A DNA stretch of 29,034 bases from Candidatus Baldrarchaeum yapensis (GTDB taxonomy: Archaea > Asgardarchaeota > Baldrarchaeia > Baldrarchaeales > Baldrarchaeaceae): contig JAEOSH010000022.1 of NCBI GenBank assembly GCA_016840465.1, positions 1-29,034 on the forward strand, read 5' to 3'. Of this stretch, positions 2,953 through 12,493 are shown one piece after another. Position 1 is the first letter of the stretch. Each line of letters opens with the position of its first letter. The position numbers and the translations under genes were made by a program. Below the pieces are notes generated by a model. The model saw nothing but the letters and a program-made list of their open reading frames with translations. It did no database searches and had not been told where the DNA came from.

Positions 2953-4224
2953 GTGGAGAAGGAAATCCTTAAGGTGATAGAACAGAAGGAAAGAGAAGTG
3001 GCATCGCTGTGCTCCGAGCTGATAAAGAGAAAGAGTGAAAATCCGCCGGGTGATGTGAGCGAGGCGGCGTTCTTCGTCAGAGATCTGCTTAAAGAATGGG
3101 GGCTCGATGTAAAAACCGTGGAGCCGGAAAGGGGAAGAGTCAACGTGGTTGCAATCTTAAAAGGTCATGGAGAGAAGAAATTGTTGTTTAATGGGCATTT
3201 AGACGTTGTTCCTGCTGGAGACCCGAAAAACTGGAAGTACGACCCGTATGAGGGCAGAATATCAGGAGGGATTGTGTACGGCAGAGGGGCGTGCGACATG
3301 AAAGGCGCAATAGCGTCGATGCTGACAACCCTCTCCGTGATTCTCGAAAAGGACGTGAAACTTGGTGGTGACCTGATATTCCATTTCGTCTGTGATGAGG
3401 AAACGGGCGGCCAGTTCGGCACCGGATACCTCGCTAGGGAGGGATACGTTTCCGCCGACGGTTGCATCATAGGAGAGGGGTCCGGAAACAGCGTTCTCGG
3501 CTATACGCTGGTCGTTGCGGAGAGGGGCGTGATATGGGCCAAAATAAAGGCTAAAGGCAGAGCAGCACACGGATCGGTTCCCATGCTTGGAGACAACGCG
3601 ATACTGAAGCTTATGAGGGTCATAGACGTCATCAGGACACTCCCCGACATGGAGTTGAGAATAGACCCCGAGATAGAAAGGCTTGCAGAGAGTTCTATGG
3701 AGTACCTCGGCCCCTTCATGAGGGCGTACAAGATTGATCCCGAGGACTTCAAGAGGAATATGTTAAGGATGTCGGTGAACGTGGGAGTGGTGAGAGGGGG
3801 AACAAAGGTCAACGTGGTTCCCGAGTATGCCGAAGCCGAAATCGACGTGAGGGTTCCACCCTCTGTTTCGTTAGAAGAAGCGATAAACCTGCTTAGGGAC
3901 AGGATCGAGGGAACTGGAGTTCCGGGAGTGGAACTGGAGTTAATGGCGACATCGGAGCCCTCATATCAGGACGTGAGCCACCCGTTTGTCAACTTTGTGA
4001 GGAGGTGCGTTGAGGAGGTCACCGGGAGAAGCGTCCCGCTCATAATGATGCCTTGGTCGACGGACGCGCGCTACATAAGAAACCTAGGTATACCGACGGT
4101 AATGCTGGGTCCTCTGAACGAAAGTCCGCACATGGCGAACGAATATGTTCCGATAAGAGATTTGGTAATGTGCGCAAAGATGTATGCGCTGATAGCATTA
4201 AGATTTCTGGGGCATGAAGCTTAA
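2953..4224 (+). CDS. M20 family metallopeptidase/deacylase (ArgE/DapE-like)
   Basis: Motifs NGHLDVVP, YGRGACDMKG, DEETGG, IIGE, GRAAHGS, GGTKVNVVPE and HMANE. GGTGAT ribosome-binding site before the GTG. Confidence 0.92.
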   Translation: MEKEILKVIEQKEREVASLCSELIKRKSENPPGDVSEAAFFVRDLLKEWGLDVKTVEPERGRVNVVAILKGHGEKKLLFNGHLDVVPAGDPKNWKYDPYEGRISGGIVYGRGACDMKGAIASMLTTLSVILEKDVKLGGDLIFHFVCDEETGGQFGTGYLAREGYVSADGCIIGEGSGNSVLGYTLVVAERGVIWAKIKAKGRAAHGSVPMLGDNAILKLMRVIDVIRTLPDMELRIDPEIERLAESSMEYLGPFMRAYKIDPEDFKRNMLRMSVNVGVVRGGTKVNVVPEYAEAEIDVRVPPSVSLEEAINLLRDRIEGTGVPGVELELMATSEPSYQDVSHPFVNFVRRCVEEVTGRSVPLIMMPWSTDARYIRNLGIPTVMLGPLNESPHMANEYVPIRDLVMCAKMYALIALRFLGHEA

Positions 4225-4308
4225 CGCCATCATGGCTCCAATTTACTACACTTAAATGCCGCTCAGCGAAAAAATATAGTCTGAGAAAATAACCCTTCGT
4301 GGCCCAAA

Positions 4309-4764
4309 ATGACGTATGAGTACTGCCCATACTGCGGCACCCCCCTACCACCTGGTGCAATGTTTTGTCCCAAGTGCAATGCCTCGCTTATGGAGCCTCC
4401 AGAAGAGTTGGAAAGCATGACCGCTGGCGAAAAGATCTCAATTTCCTCATCCCGCGAAAAAGCAGTCACGGAAACTCCTAGAATCGTAAGAAAGAGGCCG
4501 ATGATTGCGGCAGCCCTCTCAGCTATCGTGCCCGGGCTTGGACATCTGTACGCCGGAAGGAAGAGGAGAGCGGCTTTAATCATGCTTCTGATGGTTCCAT
4601 CTTTCTTCGCAATATTGTTTTTGGTTTTCGCGATGAGCAAGTTCTTCGGAATGCTCCTCTTCCTATCATGGGTACTGGTGTGGGTATGGCAGGTGCGTGA
4701 CTCCTACGATCTGACAGAGCGTATGGCCACGCAGAGGCACATGCGAAGTGCCCCTCGTATGTGA
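4309..4764 (+). CDS. Zinc-ribbon + TM2-like membrane protein
   Basis: CPYCG...FCPKC ribbon, AAALSAIVPGLGHLYAG TM2-like motif, then two hydrophobic helices. Paralog at 10621. Confidence 0.8.
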   Translation: MTYEYCPYCGTPLPPGAMFCPKCNASLMEPPEELESMTAGEKISISSSREKAVTETPRIVRKRPMIAAALSAIVPGLGHLYAGRKRRAALIMLLMVPSFFAILFLVFAMSKFFGMLLFLSWVLVWVWQVRDSYDLTERMATQRHMRSAPRM

Positions 4765-4788
4765 GAGACCCCGATACGTGACGGTAAC

Positions 4789-4817
4789 TTTTATTTCCAC
4801 TCCCTGCAATATATTGC
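4789..4817 (+). promoter_or_regulatory. TATA-like element and 12-bp palindrome upstream of the C/D sRNA
   Basis: TTTTATTT at 4789-4796, about 25 nt before the sRNA 5' stem. Perfect palindrome GCAATATATTGC at 4806-4817. Confidence 0.45.
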
Positions 4818-4818
4818 T

Positions 4819-4880
4819 GTACCGATGATGAATGGGGACCTCTCGAATACTGATGAAGAGGGTCTACAGCGCTGAGGTAC
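4819..4880 (+). ncRNA. Box C/D methylation-guide sRNA
   Basis: Terminal stem GTACC (4819-23)/GGTAC (4876-80); C box ATGATGA 4825-31; D' TCGA 4843-46 (alternatively CTGA 4850-53); C' TGATGA 4851-56; D CTGA 4872-75. Length 62 nt, intergenic. Confidence 0.85.
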
Positions 4881-5003
4881 CCAATACCCTCAAAAGCCGC
4901 TCCATGGCCACCTCATCTTTGCCGCCCTTTTACCACAACCTTGGAATCGAACAGTATAGCAATTGTTAAATTGAGAAAGGGTGGGAATATTCCGGGGATC
5001 GGG

Positions 5004-5288
5004 TTGAGTGTAGGTCCCGAAACTGTGCGCCACATCGCAAAACTTGCCCGCGTGAAGGTCGAAGAGGAAGAGGTTGCGAAGTTCTCCGAACAGTTCTCAA
5101 GAATACTCGAGTTCTTCAACGAACTTGACAAGATAGACGTCTCAAACGTCGAGCCAATGTACCACGTGATCCCCCTCGAAAACGTGTTGCGGGAGGATAA
5201 ACCCTCCCAGCCGCTCGACGTTGAGGATGCGCTCAAAAACGCCCCCGAGAGGAAGGACAAGTACTTCAAAGCCCCGCCAATAATCTGA
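5004..5288 (+). CDS. gatC: Asp-tRNA(Asn) amidotransferase subunit C
   Basis: VRHIAKLARV...ILEFFNELDKID...NVLRED...ALKNAPE...YFKAP. TTG at 5004 is preferred over the ORF-track start at 4941. The stop overlaps the gatA start (TGATG). Confidence 0.92.
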   Translation: MSVGPETVRHIAKLARVKVEEEEVAKFSEQFSRILEFFNELDKIDVSNVEPMYHVIPLENVLREDKPSQPLDVEDALKNAPERKDKYFKAPPII

Positions 5289-6784
5289 TGCAAGTGGTTG
5301 CAATGAAAATTTATGAGATGACCGCGTTAGAACTGCGGGATGCGATAATCCGTGGGGAGTACAAGGTCGAAGAAGTGGTATCAGCATTCTTAGAGAGGAT
5401 AGAAAAGGACCCGCTCAACTGCTACATAACCGTCGTTAAGGAGCAGGCACTGGAGGAGGCCCGCAAAAAGGACAAGGAGATAAAGGAGTACACCCCGGAT
5501 AAGGTTCCGCCCCTCTTTGGAGTACCGATCGCCGTCAAAGACAACATCTCAACTAAGGGTATAAGGACCACGTGTGCATCCAGAATGCTCGAAAACTACG
5601 TGCCCGTCTTCGATGCGACCGTTGTTGAATTACTTAAACAGGCGGGAGCAATAATCGTCGGTAAAACGAATATGGACGAATTCGCGATGGGAAGCACTAA
5701 CGAAACCAGTTACTTTGGCCCGGTCCTTAACCCCTGGGACAGAAGTAGGGTCCCAGGAGGATCCTCGGGAGGAAGTGCGGCAACTGTCGCCGCGCGCCAA
5801 GTACCCTTGGCACTTGGAACCGACACCGGAGGCTCGATAAGGGCGCCAGCAAGTTACTGTGGAATCGTTGGTCTGAAGCCCACTTACGGGATGGTAAGTC
5901 GATACGGCCTGATAGCCTACGCCGATAGCCTAGAACAAATAGGACCCATGGCAAGGACTGTTGAAGATTTGGCTCTGTTATTTGACGTTATAGAGAGATA
6001 CGATCCCCGAGACTCCACCTCGGTTCCGCCGAAGTTCCGCCCCTCGACTGGGAGGCATCTACAGGAGTTGAGAACCATATTTCCGGAGGAGATAAGTGGG
6101 CTGAGAATGGCGCTGATATCGGAACTCATGAGCGAGGGCATCGAATCGGAGGTCTCGCACAGCATAATGAGAAGCGTTGAGATATTCGAGAAATACGATA
6201 TCATGGTCGACGAGATATCGATCCCCGAGCTGAGGTACGCGCTCCCCGCGTACTACATAATTGCAATGGCGGAGGCAAGTTCAAACCTCGCAAGATACGA
6301 TGGTATAAGGTACGGATTCTCCTCGGGTGCCCCCGGGAAGTTCTACGACGTGATCGCCGAAAACAGAAGGCTGGGATTTGGGGAGGAGGTAAGGAGGAGG
6401 ATCCTTCTGGGAACGTTTGTCCTCTCGGCCGGGTATTACGGACAATATTATCTGAAGGCGCTGAAGGTGCGGAGACTGATAAAAGAGGCCCTCGACAGAG
6501 CGTTCAAATCATTCGATATTCTCATTTCACCAACTATGCCCATTCTCCCTCCGAAACTGGGTGAGCGGATAAAGGATCCCCTCACGCTCTACCTCATGGA
6601 TCTATGTACCGTCCCCGCAAACCTCGCCGGGGTTCCCGCATTGTCCATTCCATGCGCATTCGTTAATGGGTTACCCGTTGGGATGCAACTCATGGCCCCG
6701 CCCTTCCACGAAGACGTTCTCTTCAAGGCCGCCTACATCTTCCAAAAGGAGACCCGCCTCTATGAAATGAGTCCTCCCGTGTAG
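5288..6784 (+). CDS. gatA: Amidotransferase subunit A (amidase signature family)
   Basis: AVKDNI (catalytic Lys), GKTNMDEFAMGS, PGGSSGGSAA, GTDTGGSIRAPAS (nucleophilic Ser), SSNLARYDGIRYG, EEVRRRILLG. Confidence 0.96.
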   Translation: MQVVAMKIYEMTALELRDAIIRGEYKVEEVVSAFLERIEKDPLNCYITVVKEQALEEARKKDKEIKEYTPDKVPPLFGVPIAVKDNISTKGIRTTCASRMLENYVPVFDATVVELLKQAGAIIVGKTNMDEFAMGSTNETSYFGPVLNPWDRSRVPGGSSGGSAATVAARQVPLALGTDTGGSIRAPASYCGIVGLKPTYGMVSRYGLIAYADSLEQIGPMARTVEDLALLFDVIERYDPRDSTSVPPKFRPSTGRHLQELRTIFPEEISGLRMALISELMSEGIESEVSHSIMRSVEIFEKYDIMVDEISIPELRYALPAYYIIAMAEASSNLARYDGIRYGFSSGAPGKFYDVIAENRRLGFGEEVRRRILLGTFVLSAGYYGQYYLKALKVRRLIKEALDRAFKSFDILISPTMPILPPKLGERIKDPLTLYLMDLCTVPANLAGVPALSIPCAFVNGLPVGMQLMAPPFHEDVLFKAAYIFQKETRLYEMSPPV

Positions 6785-6794
6785 GTGAGGGGGT

Positions 6795-9644
6795 ATGGGT
6801 AAGGAGCAACCCGAAGTGAGGATAGGATTAGAGATTCACTGTCAGATGTCGAACCTGAAGACGAAGCTCTTCTGCAGTTGCCCTTCCGATTACCGGGATA
6901 AGGATCCAAACACAGTGACGTGTCCCGTATGTTTGGGACTCCCCGGTGCGCTCCCCGTAGTCAATAAAGAGGCAATAAAGATGGCGATAAAGACGGCCCT
7001 CGTACTCAACTCCCAAATCTCGAGGAAGACCTACTTCTACAGGAAACACTACTTCTACCCCGACCTCCCCAAGGGCTACCAGATATCCCAATACGACAGG
7101 GCGGGCGCGGTCCCCTTCGCCGTTGGAGGCTACCTTGACATAGAGGTAAACGGGCGCAGGAAGAGGATAAGGATTCGGAGGATACAGATAGAGGAGGACC
7201 CCGCAAAACTCACATATAGTGGTGCGTCCATCGATGTCGCTCAATTCACAATGATAGACTATAACAGGTCCGGAATTCCGCTTCTGGAAATAGTAACGGA
7301 GCCCGACCTCTCCTCCGCGGAGGAAACCGTGGAATTCCTAAAGAAGTTGCGGATGCTTCTGGAACATATCGGTGTATTTCAAGGAGATCTGGAGGGCGTG
7401 ATGAGGGTAGACGTGAACCTCTCGATAGGGTCCGGCGCCAGGGTCGAGATAAAGAACCTATCCTCCCTGAAGGATGTTGAGAGGGCGATTTCATTCGAGA
7501 TTCTGAGGCAGACGAGACTCATGCGTGAAGGGATAGAGGTAAGAAGGGAAACGCTCCACTGGGACGACAAGGCACGTAGAACCTATACTCTGAGAGAGAA
7601 GGAGGAGGAGCAGGACTACAGGTATTTCCCCGATCCCAACCTCCCTCCCCTCATGATAACGGATGAAATGATAGAGGAAGTCAAGAAGGAACTCCCGCAT
7701 CTGCCGGAAATGCTCGTCGAGAAGTATGTCAGCGAACTCGGAATCCCGGAGAATATGGCGAGAGTGATAGTGCAGGACGTAACGCTCTCCAGATTCTTTG
7801 ATGAATGTGTGGAATCCGGTGGAAACCCGGCAGAGGTTGCTCGCTGGCTCCTAAAACTCCCGAAGGAGGACAAGGAAACCCTCCTCTCAAAGTGGGACAC
7901 ATCCGGGTTCGCCAAGGTCGTCGACGTACTAAAGAACTATGAGGTTCCGGACGACATAGGCGTCAACCTGATTCATGATTACCTCTCGGGGAAGATAACG
8001 CTAGAGGATGTGGAGGAGGGAGGAAGGAAGATCGCAGAGTCACGTAAATATCTTAAGGAGAAGATAATCGAAATCCTATCCTCAATAGAAGTTCCAAAGA
8101 AGGTAATTGAGAGGATAGGCGGAGATGAGGAGAAGTTAAGGGGTTTCGTCATAGGGCAGGTGAAAAAGCTTCTTTCCAAAACGTATGGCAGATTCATAGA
8201 CTCCAAACTCGTCGCCGAACTGGTATCGGAGAACTTTGGTGTTGTAAGGGAAAGAGTAAAGCTGGAGAAGAAAGAAGAGGTCACCCCCACCGTCACAGTT
8301 AGGGAAAGGATCGTAGAGGGTCTGGAGGGTCTTCGGAGGACCCACTTCACGGATGAGGTCACTTCTGATCTCGAGGGAGAAGAGGTAGTGGTGTACGGCT
8401 GGGTCCAAAGAATAAGCCGCCTCGGAAAACTCACCTTCCTGGTGCTCAGAGACGGAAGAGGAATAATCCAAGTGAAGATCTCCAGAAAGGAGTGCCCCGA
8501 GGAGGTCGTCAAGAAACTGAAATACATAACGCCGGAGTCGGTGGTAGCGGTCAAGGGCACCGTTAGGGTCGACAAGAGGGCGCCCACCGGAGTCGAAATA
8601 GTTCCCAGCGAGATGAGGGTTCTCGCAATTAGTGAGAAACTCCCATACACCCTAGAGCAGGCCCGTGAGGTCGACCTTTCCACACGGCTCGACTACAGGT
8701 ACATCGACATAAGGAGGGAGAGCGTCAGGGCGATCTTCAGAATAAGGTCCACGGTGCTCCACAGCATCAGTAACTTCTTCCACGAGCACGGCTTCGTCGA
8801 GATCAACACCCCCAAGATAATTGCAACAGCGGCAGAGGGAGGCGCTGAACTATTCTCCCTTCTCTTCTACGGAAGAGAAGCGTACCTCAGCCAAAGTCCT
8901 CAACTTTACAAGCAAATGGCAACTCTCGGGTTTGAGCGCGTCTTCGAGATAGGACCATGCTACAGAGCGGAAAAGTTCCACACGACAAAGCACCTAGTAG
9001 AGTTCTGGGCCCTCGATGTCGAGGTGGCATTCGCAACATACCATGACCTCATGAAGATCCTCGAGGACCTGATGGTGCACGTGTACAGTGATGTTATAGA
9101 GAAGCACCCGAAGGAGTTGGAGATACTGGGTGTGGAGCTGGAGGTCCCGAAGCCCCCGTTCCCCAAGATAACCTACGATGAGGCGCTCAAAATAGCGGCG
9201 AGCAAAGGATATGAGGTAGAGTGGGGCGACGACGTACGTGGTGAGGCCTTCAGGGCGGTGTCAAACGACTTTGCAGAACGTGGACACGAGTTCTTCTTCA
9301 TAATAGACTTCCCAGCGTCCGCAAGAGCATTTTACTACAAGCCACATGAGAAGGATGAACGACTCACTAAGAGTTTTGATCTAGTGAACAGCGTCAAGGG
9401 AGGAATAGAACTCTCAAGTGGAGGGGAGAGAATAAACGACATAGACCTCCTAGTAAAGAGACTTAGGGAGCGGGGTCTCGACCCCGAGAAGTACACGTGG
9501 TACCTTGATATGTTCAAATACGGGGTCCCACCACACGGAGGATTCGGTCTAGGAATAGAAAGACTCCTGCAGGCGATGCTTCGCCTCGACAACATAATGG
9601 AGGCAGTGTTCGTACCGAGAACGCCTCAGAGACTCACACCATAA
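6795..9644 (+). CDS. gatB-aspS: GatB::aspartyl-tRNA synthetase fusion (GatB aa 1-481, 31-aa linker, archaeal-type AspRS aa 513-949)
   Basis: GatB: IGLEIHCQ, FCSC/CPVC, RKHYFYPDLPKGYQISQY, EEDPAK, DYNRSGIPLLEIVTEPD, RVEIKN, DYRYFPDP, FVIGQVKK tail. AspRS: RTHF...GWV, LRDG, EGGAELF, QSPQLYKQ, GPCYRAEK, SSGGER, PPHGGFGLGIERL, PRTPQRLTP. One uninterrupted 949-codon frame. Confidence 0.95.
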   Translation: MGKEQPEVRIGLEIHCQMSNLKTKLFCSCPSDYRDKDPNTVTCPVCLGLPGALPVVNKEAIKMAIKTALVLNSQISRKTYFYRKHYFYPDLPKGYQISQYDRAGAVPFAVGGYLDIEVNGRRKRIRIRRIQIEEDPAKLTYSGASIDVAQFTMIDYNRSGIPLLEIVTEPDLSSAEETVEFLKKLRMLLEHIGVFQGDLEGVMRVDVNLSIGSGARVEIKNLSSLKDVERAISFEILRQTRLMREGIEVRRETLHWDDKARRTYTLREKEEEQDYRYFPDPNLPPLMITDEMIEEVKKELPHLPEMLVEKYVSELGIPENMARVIVQDVTLSRFFDECVESGGNPAEVARWLLKLPKEDKETLLSKWDTSGFAKVVDVLKNYEVPDDIGVNLIHDYLSGKITLEDVEEGGRKIAESRKYLKEKIIEILSSIEVPKKVIERIGGDEEKLRGFVIGQVKKLLSKTYGRFIDSKLVAELVSENFGVVRERVKLEKKEEVTPTVTVRERIVEGLEGLRRTHFTDEVTSDLEGEEVVVYGWVQRISRLGKLTFLVLRDGRGIIQVKISRKECPEEVVKKLKYITPESVVAVKGTVRVDKRAPTGVEIVPSEMRVLAISEKLPYTLEQAREVDLSTRLDYRYIDIRRESVRAIFRIRSTVLHSISNFFHEHGFVEINTPKIIATAAEGGAELFSLLFYGREAYLSQSPQLYKQMATLGFERVFEIGPCYRAEKFHTTKHLVEFWALDVEVAFATYHDLMKILEDLMVHVYSDVIEKHPKELEILGVELEVPKPPFPKITYDEALKIAASKGYEVEWGDDVRGEAFRAVSNDFAERGHEFFFIIDFPASARAFYYKPHEKDERLTKSFDLVNSVKGGIELSSGGERINDIDLLVKRLRERGLDPEKYTWYLDMFKYGVPPHGGFGLGIERLLQAMLRLDNIMEAVFVPRTPQRLTP

Positions 9645-9670
9645 CTCAATCCCAGAGGGGATTTCTCTGG

Positions 9671-9733
9671 GGAAATCCGCATAAGGCCCCATCTCATCAC
9701 AGGTCAGCCGAAACCTCCTTCCGTCATCTTTCC
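9671..9733 (-). ncRNA. Candidate box C/D guide sRNA, convergent with the aspS 3' end
   Basis: Minus strand reads GGA-AAGATGA(C)-cggaaggaggtttcgg-CTGA(D')-cct-GTGATGA(C')-gatggggccttatg-CGGA(D)-TTTCC. The D'/C' pair is canonical; the C and D boxes are variant but k-turn compatible. A TATA-like TATTTATAA lies at 9793-9785. Confidence 0.65.
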
Positions 9734-10009
9734 TTTCCATCCCTTTTCGGGAGTTCTCCTCGACAATTATGGTAACTAAGTCTCTTATAAATATAGTTAT
9801 TGGAGCCGAGCTTGTTGAAGTTTTTAGTATTTTATTTTTCCTCGCAAGTTCAATGGCGAAGTATCCCTAGCACGAGAAATATTGTCATGTTCGCGTAAGC
9901 CACTGATACGCTCTGCGGAGAGCAGATCCATGTTTTCATGGCAGTATAAAGAAGAAAGACCAGCATGCAATCAATCTCAGGGCCACTTGCACGCATGAAG
10001 AGGCTGACC

Positions 10010-10540
10010 ATCTCCTTGAGCCTTAACATACGCTTCATGTTATGCATTGCCGCCCTGAAAAAACAACAAAGAAGACCATAATCTCCGAATTCCTTCCCGC
10101 TCCCTCTTCTTCCTCCTGTGGTACCTCTGAGCCGAGAAACTCTCGGCCGCCCGGCGGGGAGAATACGACCAAGATCTGCACTAAACATTTGCGATGGCTT
10201 CACCTGAAAGTCGATGCCTTCCCGAAACGCCGTCATGCAATTCCTTCTCACAAAAAATCGCTATCTGCATAAAGAACCGAACTCCGCGGAAGTGCCTCCA
10301 TGACCCTGAAATGCCCACGACGCATCGCTTACGTGAAAGCGAACATGTCCACCCCTATGTCATAGACGAATTTATGTCGATAACGGTCCTCGAAAGCACT
10401 GTTCTCCCCGCACCACCCTCTCCTCAAGAAATTCCGCCGGGACGGCAGTCCTGTCCGCAACGAACTCTTCCAGGTCATCACGGCATTCCGAATTTTCATG
10501 TAAGCATGAAAGTGCAGATTCCAAGTTGTAATGTCACTTT
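10010..10540 (-). pseudogene. Heavily decayed IS4/IS5-like DDE transposase remnant
   Basis: Fragments in shifting frames occur in the expected order: FVADRTAV (10461-10447, cf. AVDSTG), RHKFVYD, EALPRSSVLYADS (10274-10260, cf. LADSxY), VRRNC...FQVKP, RYHRRKKRE (10126-10112, cf. YxxRxxxE), AAMHNMKRM. Stops and frameshifts lie between them. Confidence 0.45.
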
Positions 10541-10620
10541 CATAACCACGTATTAACGGCTATATTTTATAATCTCAAGAGGAAAAGTTAGACTATGAGT
10601 AGAGTGCACAGGTGAAAAAT

Positions 10621-11058
10621 ATGAGTACCAAGTACTGCCCTTATTGCGGAGCACAGTTACCACCAGGCGCATCTTTTTGCCCAAAGTGTGGCGCCAGTGT
10701 CCAAGTTGCACCTGCAACGCCCACAACCCAGCAACCAGCGACCCCAGTGACGACAACTCCAGTCTCACCGCCCCCCACTCGTCCACCGACTACTGTCGTG
10801 GTTGGGGCTAAGAGTCCGGGGGTTGCTGCAATCCTATCGTTGCTGATCCCAGGCCTCGGGCAGATATACGTCGGAAGAGTGGGAAGGGGCTTATTGATAT
10901 TGTTCATAGTGATGCCACTTACATTCGTGATAGCGTCTCTCACGCTCATATTTGTGTTCCTACCGCTCATCATATGGATCTGGCAAATCTTCGACGCATA
11001 TAATCTTGCGAAAAAGTACAACGACTACCTGTTAAGCATAGGCCAACCTCCTTGGTGA
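10621..11058 (+). CDS. Zinc-ribbon + Pro/Thr linker + TM2-like membrane protein
   Basis: CPYCG...FCPKCG, PATPTTQQPATPVTTTPVSPPPTRPP linker, KSPGVAAILSLLIPGLGQIYVG, WIWQIFDAY. ATG at 10621 is preferred (ORF track starts at GTG 10612). Confidence 0.85.
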   Translation: MSTKYCPYCGAQLPPGASFCPKCGASVQVAPATPTTQQPATPVTTTPVSPPPTRPPTTVVVGAKSPGVAAILSLLIPGLGQIYVGRVGRGLLILFIVMPLTFVIASLTLIFVFLPLIIWIWQIFDAYNLAKKYNDYLLSIGQPPW

Positions 11059-11311
11059 ATAAGGCAAAATACCTTAACGTTCCTTTTTCTTTTTTATCAA
11101 TGGGAGTATGGAAGTATCCACGCATCCACTCAAGAAACTTTACGAAATCCATAAACGTAAATTTTCGCCATAATACGTATATCCTGGGATCTGATCTTAG
11201 TATGCTACACTCCTACTTGTATCATTTCAATTTTCAATTATGCTTTCTTCAAACATTCCATTTGAAGAAGTTCTTGTTAGCTTTGACAAAAGGAAACCTT
11301 TTGGTGGGCTC

Positions 11312-12493
11312 CTATAACTTCGAAATTAGGAATTCGAGAGCAGTTAGTGCGTAGACTTTCGATGCTATCATCACGTCCTTTGTGCAAATGTGTTCATATG
11401 GTGTGTGAGCAACAGCGCAATCTCCGGGCCCAAAGATAACTACCGGAATTTTTGCCTTAAGAAAGAGGGTTTCCGCATCTGTCCACGCGGTAAATGGCAT
11501 GTGCTCGACATCTTTTCCGCAAACCGTACGAAATGCTCTTGAAATTGCGGACACTATTTTCTCATGCTCGTTAACCGAAAACGCCTCCCCATAGTTCGAA
11601 GTCTCCACGTGATAACCCAATATTACGCCTTTCCTCCTCAAATTTTCGAGGATCACCCTAGCCTCCCTCTTAACATCCTCTTCCTTGACCCCGCTCTTGA
11701 GGTTCAGGTTTAACTCCAAACGGCAGGAAAGAGGAACTACTACCGACCGCGTCCCCCCCACAAACCTATTGATATTCATTGATAAAACCTCCCCCTCCTT
11801 TACAATCCTAGACTCCTTAAACATGCTGAGAAACTCTATCGCCCCCTCCACCGCATTTACTCCTCTCTGGGGGAAACTCCCGTGCGCGGCCTTTCCGAAG
11901 ACCATTACTGTGAGATCCACATACCCCAGTTGTGAGGTGCAGATGCGTAAAGAGGTGGGCTCACCGACTATTGCAGCATCCGCAAGAATTCCCTTCTCGA
12001 CGAGGTGTTGTGTACCCCTCCCCTGTTCCTCCTCATCTACAACAAATGCCAGAATAACTCTCCCGCCAATCTGATTCTCAAACGGTAGTAAATTCTTAAA
12101 AGCTAATAGCATCGCGGTAAGCCCACCCTTCATATCCACAGCCCCCAATCCGTAAATGTAATCTCCGCATACCACCGCCTTAAACGGTGGAGTATTCCAG
12201 TCTTCCGGGGCAACAGTGTCGAGATGGCCGTTCAGCATAAGGACTCGTCTTCCCTTCCCTATTTCGGCTATAAGATTGTACCTGTTCGGAAGAACCTCCT
12301 CAAGCCTTACAGATACTCCCCACCCTTCTAATAACTCTCTTATGTAGAACGCAATTTCGGCCTCGTATCCCGATACGCTCGGAATCTCTATTAGCTTCGA
12401 TAGAAGATCCACTACCTCTTCCCTGCTAACTCTCATGGAGTCCAGTAGTGCCCGCCTCGTATCGATACCGCACATGTGCGTAAGTAATAGCAC
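11312..12493 (-). CDS. M20 family metallopeptidase/deacetylase (ArgE/DapE/LysK-like)
   Basis: NGHLDTV, YGLGAVDMKGG, VDEE, IVGEPT, GKAAHGS and AHTPYE. The true start may be ATG 12436 (MRVSREEVVDLL). Confidence 0.92.
   Translation of the reverse strand: MLLLTHMCGIDTRRALLDSMRVSREEVVDLLSKLIEIPSVSGYEAEIAFYIRELLEGWGVSVRLEEVLPNRYNLIAEIGKGRRVLMLNGHLDTVAPEDWNTPPFKAVVCGDYIYGLGAVDMKGGLTAMLLAFKNLLPFENQIGGRVILAFVVDEEEQGRGTQHLVEKGILADAAIVGEPTSLRICTSQLGYVDLTVMVFGKAAHGSFPQRGVNAVEGAIEFLSMFKESRIVKEGEVLSMNINRFVGGTRSVVVPLSCRLELNLNLKSGVKEEDVKREARVILENLRRKGVILGYHVETSNYGEAFSVNEHEKIVSAISRAFRTVCGKDVEHMPFTAWTDAETLFLKAKIPVVIFGPGDCAVAHTPYEHICTKDVMIASKVYALTALEFLISKL

Follow-up and report, generated by a model that had tools for sequence, protein, structure and literature searches.

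The stretch of DNA considered here, 29,034 nucleotides of contig JAEOSH010000022.1 of Candidatus Baldrarchaeum yapensis (the whole of it is called the window in the following), carries a gat operon of three genes on one strand in the order gatC-gatA-gatB::aspS, the last of which encodes the amidotransferase subunit GatB with an aspartyl-tRNA synthetase (AspRS) fused to its C-terminus (Table 1). The source genome (G000) is an archaeal metagenome-assembled genome (MAG) of 2.27 Mb in 100 contigs that is 96% complete, and the window is its contig C23; labels beginning with G, P, C or L, as used here for genomes, proteins and loci, are codes internal to this analysis. Both halves of the fusion protein are recognized by equivalog models, the GatB half (amino acids (aa) 5-480) with 495 bits and the other half (aa 515-949), by the model for aspartate--tRNA(Asn) ligase, with 526 bits; a linker of roughly 30 residues joins the two. 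A genome-wide search with GatB_N matched only the fusion gene and GatE, and the fusion is thus the sole GatB of the genome, which also has a single GatC. The longest open reading frame (ORF) of gatC opens with TTG, and a later true start is probable. Records of the identical fusion protein come from several sources, and a second fusion (P0006), 70% identical and with the same architecture and gene order, was found on an independent metagenome contig, so that an assembly artefact is not the explanation.

Table 1. Genes and domains of the gat operon, with positions in the window
Feature	Position (nt)	Strand	Evidence
gatC	4941..5288	+	Pfam GatC (PF02686) match 5061-5270, 86 bits
gatA, 498 aa	5288..6784	+	TIGR00132 611.8 bits (cut-off 481); Pfam Amidase 525 bits
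gatB::aspS fusion gene, 949 aa, single open frame	6795..9644	+	equivalog models for both halves
GatB part, ~aa 1-481	6795..8237	+	Pfam GatB_N 9-294, GatB_Yqey 333-479
AspRS anticodon-binding OB fold, aa 531-610	8385..8624	+	PF01336, 57 bits; gapless against T. kodakarensis AspRS residues 3-102
Gln538 codon CAA (T. kodakarensis position 26)	8406..8408	+	direct codon reading and alignment
L1 loop D593-K-R-A-P597-T-G599	8571..8591	+	anticodon-binding domain; Pro597 codon CCC 8583-8585 = position 85
Class II catalytic core of AspRS, aa 629-943	8679..9623	+	PF00152, 293 bits; catalytic residues kept

The synthetase half is an archaeal-type AspRS in which the catalytic and aspartate-binding residues are all kept. 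It consists of an OB fold and a class II core and lacks the GAD insertion of bacterial enzymes, as is typical of class IIb AspRS of the archaeal/eukaryal type, and its 445 aa align end to end with the 438-aa discriminating enzyme of Thermococcus kodakarensis (3NEL, 1B8A), which has the same Asp pocket and is the best match among solved structures in a phmmer (HMMER) comparison with the Protein Data Bank (E = 2e-120). Over the first ~100 residues this alignment is gapless, with residue 10 of the excised domain (P0001:505-949) on chain residue 2, and it bears out the offset of 512 on which an earlier reading of the letters alone (the original prediction) had built its numbering: Q538 lies on Trp26 (agwvWev) and P597 on Lys85 (tpkaKlg), so that the window enzyme has Gln26/Pro85 where the T. 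kodakarensis enzyme has Trp26/Lys85. The motifs, too, are found where they had been placed (GWVQ 535-538, SRLG 541-544, KRAPTG 594-599 and KHLVE 732-736), and the Asp-binding QSPQLYKQ (700-707) and SGGER (875-879) are retained as claimed. The two replacements pointed out at that time, SRLG for RDLG and KHLVE for RHLNE, are real, but K or R at the motif-2 position is common in asparaginyl-tRNA synthetases (AsnRS) and in other free AspRS and therefore uninformative. The excised domain scores far above the cut-offs of the aspartate--tRNA(Asn) ligase model NF003483 (529 bits, cut-off 353) and of TIGR00458 (479 bits, cut-off 368), and it stays below that of the asnS model TIGR00457 (323.6 bits, cut-off 342.6). 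This score and the QSPQLYKQ motif with its Asp-binding Lys, in place of the QS[SA]QxY[LE]E of AsnRS, speak against an AsnRS.

An alignment of 28 archaeal GatB-AspRS fusions, which are 40-70% identical to the window protein and have a mean column identity of 58%, shows K706 of QSPQLYKQ, R724 of motif 2, D741, E743, R879 of SGGER, H914 and R923 of motif 3 to be invariant, and judged by these residues the fused AspRS is catalytically intact. Motif 2 differs within the family: in the main archaeal fusion clade (P0007-P0032; loci L099, L110, L115, L117, L125, L126, L128 and L131) about 93% of the members have Gln for Glu (YYRAQK instead of xxRAEx). The window copy and P0006 retain RAE.

The original prediction had seen in Gln26 and Pro85 together the signature of a non-discriminating AspRS, and only the proline part of this signature has stood up. 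Pro85 is present, and as R595-A596-P597-x-G599 is invariant in the 28 fusions, P597 is not there by chance; as these fusions are only 40-70% identical to the window protein, the invariance also indicates that the loop by which base 36 is read is under purifying selection. Position 26, by contrast, is uninformative. The fused domain has Gln538 and not the His26 that would be expected of a non-discriminating AspRS, and within the fusion alignment this position is Glu in more than 90% of the members and Gln only in the window copy and its closest relative. Six Thermococcales AspRS all have Lys85 and at position 26 W, Y, Q (three times) or H (the Pyrococcus enzymes among the Lys85 type have Q or H), and in the AspRS of GatB-bearing Asgardarchaeota the residue is E, R, K or Q and in no case H. 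As the position thus varies in Lys85 enzymes and is never His in the GatB-bearing relatives, Gln26 says nothing about specificity. The combination His26/Pro85 is found in AspRS of Methanothermus, Methanocaldococcus and Methanobacterium, several of which are annotated as Asp/Asn ligases.

Pro85 itself cannot be taken as a sufficient marker, as had been assumed. Among Asgardarchaeota it occurs in 10/10 AspRS from GatB-bearing genomes and also in 6/21 from GatB-less genomes, and almost every one of these GatB-less genomes gives a second match of AsnRS type; these counts are descriptive only, since kin genomes are not independent. Pro85 is thus permissive, and from this comparison it looks necessary but not sufficient for a non-discriminating AspRS. 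Feng et al. reportedly found in 2005 that either K85P or W26H lets the T. kodakarensis AspRS accept tRNA(Asn), and the claim in the title of that work is said to agree with such a necessary but not sufficient role of Pro85.

The L1 loop to which P597 belongs has close counterparts in AspRS and in AsnRS. The window loop DKRAPTG compares with DKRAPRG in the likewise archaeal-type AspRS of Sulfolobus tokodaii (1WYD, match with E = 6e-102) and with DERAPGG in the AsnRS of P. horikoshii (1X54), and the identical heptapeptide DKRAPTG is present in the AsnRS of two genomes (G014 and G024). Its residues D81, R83 and P85 are found in 100% of AsnRS and in 96-100% of the fusions and are rare in free AspRS. 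The S. tokodaii AspRS is non-discriminating and charges tRNA(Asp) as well as tRNA(Asn); to our knowledge it is the only AspRS of that organism, so it must charge both. It is a free-standing enzyme with His26, whereas the window enzyme is fused, accessory and has Gln26. As nearly the same loop thus serves in a dual-specific AspRS and in AsnRS, the loop of the fused domain argues, as far as such likenesses go, for an acceptance of U36 and not for a rejection of C36.

The fusion is not the sole AspRS of its genome. Three class IIb synthetases were found, namely the fusion, a free 438-aa AspRS (P0003, on C67) and a class II lysyl-tRNA synthetase (LysRS, on C27), which makes two AspRS genes and no asnS reaching the cut-off. 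A second, free AspRS had been the premise on which a specialisation of the fused copy on tRNA(Asn) had been proposed, and P0003 is such a copy. It is 46% identical to the fused domain and reads GWVH...EKAPNN, which corresponds to His26/Pro85 with a loop almost identical to the SKAPNN of Methanothermus fervidus, and the aspS_nondisc model gives it 594 bits compared with 479 bits for the fused domain. The free AspRS hence does not look discriminating, nor can the two copies be seen to have divided into one discriminating and one non-discriminating enzyme. The division of labour foreseen on the pattern of the glutamyl-tRNA synthetases GluRS1 and GluRS2 was not borne out in this form, since the free partner is of the His26/Pro85 type and the fused loop resembles that of the dual-specific S. 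tokodaii AspRS.

With regard to the formation of Asn-tRNA(Asn), the assembled 96% of the genome contain no AsnRS match at the asnS cut-off, no AsnA-like core and no AsnB, for which only two weak 74-residue PP-loop matches were obtained. Transamidation is consequently the one way of making Asn-tRNA(Asn) and asparagine that can be seen there, and the genome presents the context in which a non-discriminating AspRS is expected, with GatCAB present and AsnRS absent. GatE is present as well, for the Gln route.

In an IQ-TREE phylogeny of 91 AspRS and AsnRS sequences (LG+C20, support by the Shimodaira-Hasegawa-like approximate likelihood-ratio test, SH-aLRT), the fused domain of the window pairs with that of P0006 (SH-aLRT 100), and all archaeal fused domains form one clade of 28 rows (SH-aLRT 96) that lies outside all free archaeal-type AspRS (SH-aLRT 99), on the branch toward AsnRS. 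No free-standing protein more than 47% identical to the fused domain was found among 5.8 billion sequences. On the evidence of this tree, the fused domain is an accessory paralogue belonging to a separate, deep-branching AspRS lineage that in archaea was found only as GatB fusions. The free AspRS of the source genome groups with the AspRS of its order-mates (SH-aLRT 98) and is 72% identical to that of G002, and is therefore the vertical housekeeping orthologue.

How the fusion clade relates to AsnRS depends on the root. In a tree with LysRS as outgroup, where a sequence meant for the outgroup (L101) turned out to be an AsnRS, the fusions remain one group (SH-aLRT 93) and come out as sister to AsnRS (SH-aLRT 90), a tentative placement given that monophyly of AspRS is not rejected by an approximately unbiased (AU) test (p = 0.47). 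Domain-wise log-odds scores from hidden Markov models (HMM) place the fusion family between AspRS and AsnRS both in the N-domain and in the core. The window copy scores +19 in the N-domain and +80 in the core; the corresponding leave-one-out means of AspRS are +37 and +164, those of AsnRS -42 and -199. A chimera of an AsnRS-type anticodon domain and an AspRS-type core was considered and rejected, since the family is intermediate in both domains and the window copy leans to AspRS in both.

The fusion was not found in 268 genomes of Asgardarchaeota, nor in the four further genomes that belong to the class of the source genome. Its order-mates possess AspRS, AsnRS and an AsnA-like protein but lack GatB, and the gat operon has probably been acquired horizontally, displacing the AsnRS that the order-mates keep. 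The operon is flanked on both sides by genes for M20 peptidases (2953-4224, + strand, and 11312-12493, - strand) and also on both sides by genes for proteins of about 150 aa with an N-terminal zinc ribbon (4309-4764 and 10612-11058, both + strand), and these paired genes (2953-4764 and 10612-12493) may point to an insertion within a region that had been duplicated. A 524-aa ORF (1330-2904, + strand) with OrfB_IS605 and Cas12f1-like TNB domains lies about 2 kb upstream of the operon and encodes a TnpB-type transposon protein.

Further carriers of the fusion are 12 genomes of another archaeal class, and over all its carriers the fusion has stayed with gatA and gatC in two different operon orders. 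In that class the order is gatB::aspS-gatA-gatC, followed by a divergent AsnC-type regulator and the glutamine synthetase gene glnA (L089 and L087/L088, positions 4001-10560), neighbours that hint at a control of tRNA-dependent Asn formation by nitrogen or amino acids. In all 11 of these genomes that are complete enough to be assessed, the fusion is accompanied by a free AspRS and an AsnRS; as to AsnB, matches to the Asn_synthase domain in these carriers are weak and ambiguous. In ten of the 11 (G041, G683, G687, G693, G699, G702, G716, G718, G720 and G724; loci L093, L102-L106, L108, L111, L121 and L130), the L1 loop of the free AspRS is three residues shorter and contains no proline (e.g. 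NRYKDT--YEV), and these short-loop enzymes form a clade on a very long stem of 1.17 substitutions per site. The free AspRS of G590 is a divergent copy, also Pro-less. It looks as if, with the fused copy and AsnRS in place, the free AspRS of the ten carriers had turned into a strictly discriminating enzyme. The AsnRS loop of the other carriers, KRDxRAPGG, matches their fused loop DxRAPGG, and between the two AspRS the fused copy is evidently, to judge from the loops, the only one built to read U36 in that lineage, which would fit a division of labour. As the free copy of the source genome keeps Pro85, the same picture is weaker there.

Fusions of this kind also exist in bacteria, in Oscillospiraceae with an archaeal-type AspRS and in Bacteroidota with a bacterial-type AspRS, and they have the same order of GatB followed by AspRS as in the window. 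The fusions of Oscillospiraceae are 34-36% identical to the window protein, have His26 and no Pro85 (with loops such as NKKDAAG), and branch inside the free AspRS, apart from the archaeal fusions, and so go back to an independent fusion event. A pattern search for the fusion in named genomes used patterns that were too general; only three of 80 loci spanned both halves, and at least one of these three, that in Spirochaetaceae, consists of two adjacent genes and not of a fusion. In G040, a genome of the same phylum, an AspRS-like frame with four stops (C36:143810-145171, - strand) lies about 1.6 kb from gatB (C36:140777-142210) and may be a decayed aspS. A search of the literature found no paper on a GatB-AspRS fusion; what appears to be new here is the archaeal fusion clade and, as placed by sequence comparison, its position between AspRS and AsnRS.

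With moderate confidence, the fused domain can be regarded as an accessory AspRS of the non-discriminating type that would be committed to the tRNA(Asn) route by its tethering to GatB; the non-discriminating character is suggested by Pro85, the loop and the pathway context. Organisms that make Asn-tRNA(Asn) indirectly must keep the mischarged Asp-tRNA(Asn) off the ribosome, and the usual means is a transient transamidosome. Very probably, the fused AspRS has been selected to provide GatCAB with Asp-tRNA(Asn) in cis. The free AspRS on C67, which is vertically inherited, can take care of the routine charging of tRNA(Asp), and the fused domain would load aspartate on tRNA(Asn), helped by a Pro85-type L1 loop that may tolerate U36, whereupon GatB, GatA and GatC would carry out the amidation in cis. 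As a class II dimer tied to GatB, the fused AspRS should join GatA and GatC in a covalent Asn-transamidosome. Its commitment to tRNA(Asn) would then come from the tethering and the accessory status and not from a rejection of tRNA(Asp), which, by analogy with the AspRS2 of Thermus and Deinococcus and with the S. tokodaii AspRS, the fused enzyme can probably still charge.

One of the closest known parallels is the AspRS2 of Thermus thermophilus and Deinococcus radiodurans, which like the fused domain is a second, archaeal-type AspRS without a GAD domain, and which works with GatCAB in tRNA-dependent Asn synthesis, as proposed here, while AspRS1 handles tRNA(Asp). The AspRS2 structure 1N9W and the transamidosome 3KFU match the fused domain with E = 1e-79. 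Unlike in Thermus and Deinococcus, the AspRS of the window is covalently fused to the C-terminus of GatB and belongs to a separate deep clade, its housekeeping partner is also of archaeal type and has Pro85, and the genome shows no AsnRS. Another parallel is GluRS2 of Helicobacter pylori, likewise a duplicated synthetase in an amidotransferase pathway and one that is dedicated to tRNA(Gln), but GluRS2 is a class I enzyme, is unfused and has a discriminating partner in GluRS1, whereas the partner here looks non-discriminating.

Several points weigh against the commitment of an accessory, non-discriminating AspRS to tRNA(Asn). Its specificity for either tRNA is deduced from sequence, and Pro85 is insufficient for the assignment, as six AspRS of GatB-less genomes carry it. 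The free His26/Pro85 AspRS could feed GatCAB itself, and the fused domain would then be redundant in part. An asnS gene may lie on the missing DNA, the genome being a 96%-complete MAG of 100 contigs. Finally, a tRNA(Asn) gene was not found in the assembly by aragorn (with and without introns), among 41 RF00005 matches parsed by hand, or in three scans for GUU anticodon loops that allowed loops with or without introns, although in a MAG whose tRNAs carry many introns this is not evidence of absence.

Many tRNA genes of this genome have one or more introns, some of them at non-canonical positions (e.g. C51:23350-24680, C94:1387-1506 and C61:35723-35861), and five of the genes form a cluster at the end of C51. 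In the assembly, hand parsing identified none confidently as tRNA-Asn, tRNA-His or tRNA-Trp. The only 'Asn' call of aragorn (C78:18649-18742) is a tRNA-Lys(CUU) with a non-canonical intron, and a GGU anticodon is present on two tRNAs (C89:56716-56788 and C53:7685-7772).

The original prediction went further and suggested that the fused AspRS could have specialised on tRNA(Asn), as an analogue of GluRS2, which in strict form would mean that it rejects tRNA(Asp) and that the free AspRS serves tRNA(Asp). A second AspRS is indeed present both in the source genome and in all 11 other assessable carriers, the fused loop shares D81, R83 and P85 with AsnRS, down to the identical DKRAPTG in G014 and G024, and the fusion family stands between AspRS and AsnRS in the HMM scores of both domains and beside AsnRS in the LysRS-rooted tree (SH-aLRT 90); in the ten carriers with a truncated, Pro-less loop in the free AspRS, the fused copy moreover looks like the sole reader of U36. 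Yet almost the same loop occurs in the dual-specific AspRS of S. tokodaii, the N-domain of the window copy scores on the AspRS side (+19, between means of +37 for AspRS and -42 for AsnRS), the free partner in the source genome does not look discriminating with its His26/Pro85, the precedents with two AspRS, i.e. AspRS2 of Thermus and Deinococcus, stay dual-specific, and the AU test leaves AspRS monophyly unrejected (p = 0.47). We know of no AspRS described as charging tRNA(Asn) only, and such a strict specificity is unlikely here. A deeper variant of this idea, in which the fusion-only clade would be a third ancient lineage of AspRS and AsnRS, sister to AsnRS and the survivor of a tRNA(Asn)-committed ancestor of AsnRS, with members that charge tRNA(Asn) and not tRNA(Asp), has to be called rather improbable; if it were true, the window enzyme would be among the first natural tRNA(Asn)-specific AspRS.

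In the opposite direction, it could be supposed that the free His26/Pro85 AspRS is the working enzyme for both tRNAs and that the fused domain is a discriminating or poorly active passenger. The free copy combines His26 with EKAPNN, a loop of the canonical methanogen type, it has the higher aspS_nondisc score (594 versus 479 bits), and Pro85 alone does not suffice for the non-discriminating state. A passenger would, however, hardly be expected to keep its catalytic and Asp-binding residues and R-A-P-x-G in 28 fusions only 40-70% identical to the window protein, or to be conserved with gatA and gatC in two operon orders, and in the ten carriers whose free AspRS has no loop proline the fused copy must supply the Asp-tRNA(Asn), so that this explanation is very unlikely. 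An AspRS domain that no longer aminoacylates and serves GatCAB only as a binding arm for tRNA(Asn) might be read from the RAQ for RAE in motif 2 of the main fusion clade and from the long branches of the family, but the window copy retains RAE, the arginines of motifs 2 and 3 as well as K706, D741, R879 and H914 are invariant, and the whole domain is far above the AspRS equivalog cut-off, all of which makes a pure binding function extremely unlikely. An accessory AspRS tethered to GatB and probably able to charge both tRNAs therefore stays the preferred explanation.

For the annotation of archaeal AspRS, the comparison calibrates the residue rule in common use: Pro85 looks like a necessary but by itself insufficient feature, and nothing can be predicted from position 26 outside the pair of model enzymes from which it was taken. 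For the biology of the family, the fusion offers an experiment of nature on the extent to which a synthetase may be bound to a non-cognate tRNA. If the fused enzyme is dual-specific, it would be a hard-wired form of the AspRS2 arrangement of Thermus, and if it is specific for tRNA(Asn), it would fill the empty place of a counterpart to GluRS2 and could plausibly mark an intermediate stage between AspRS and AsnRS.

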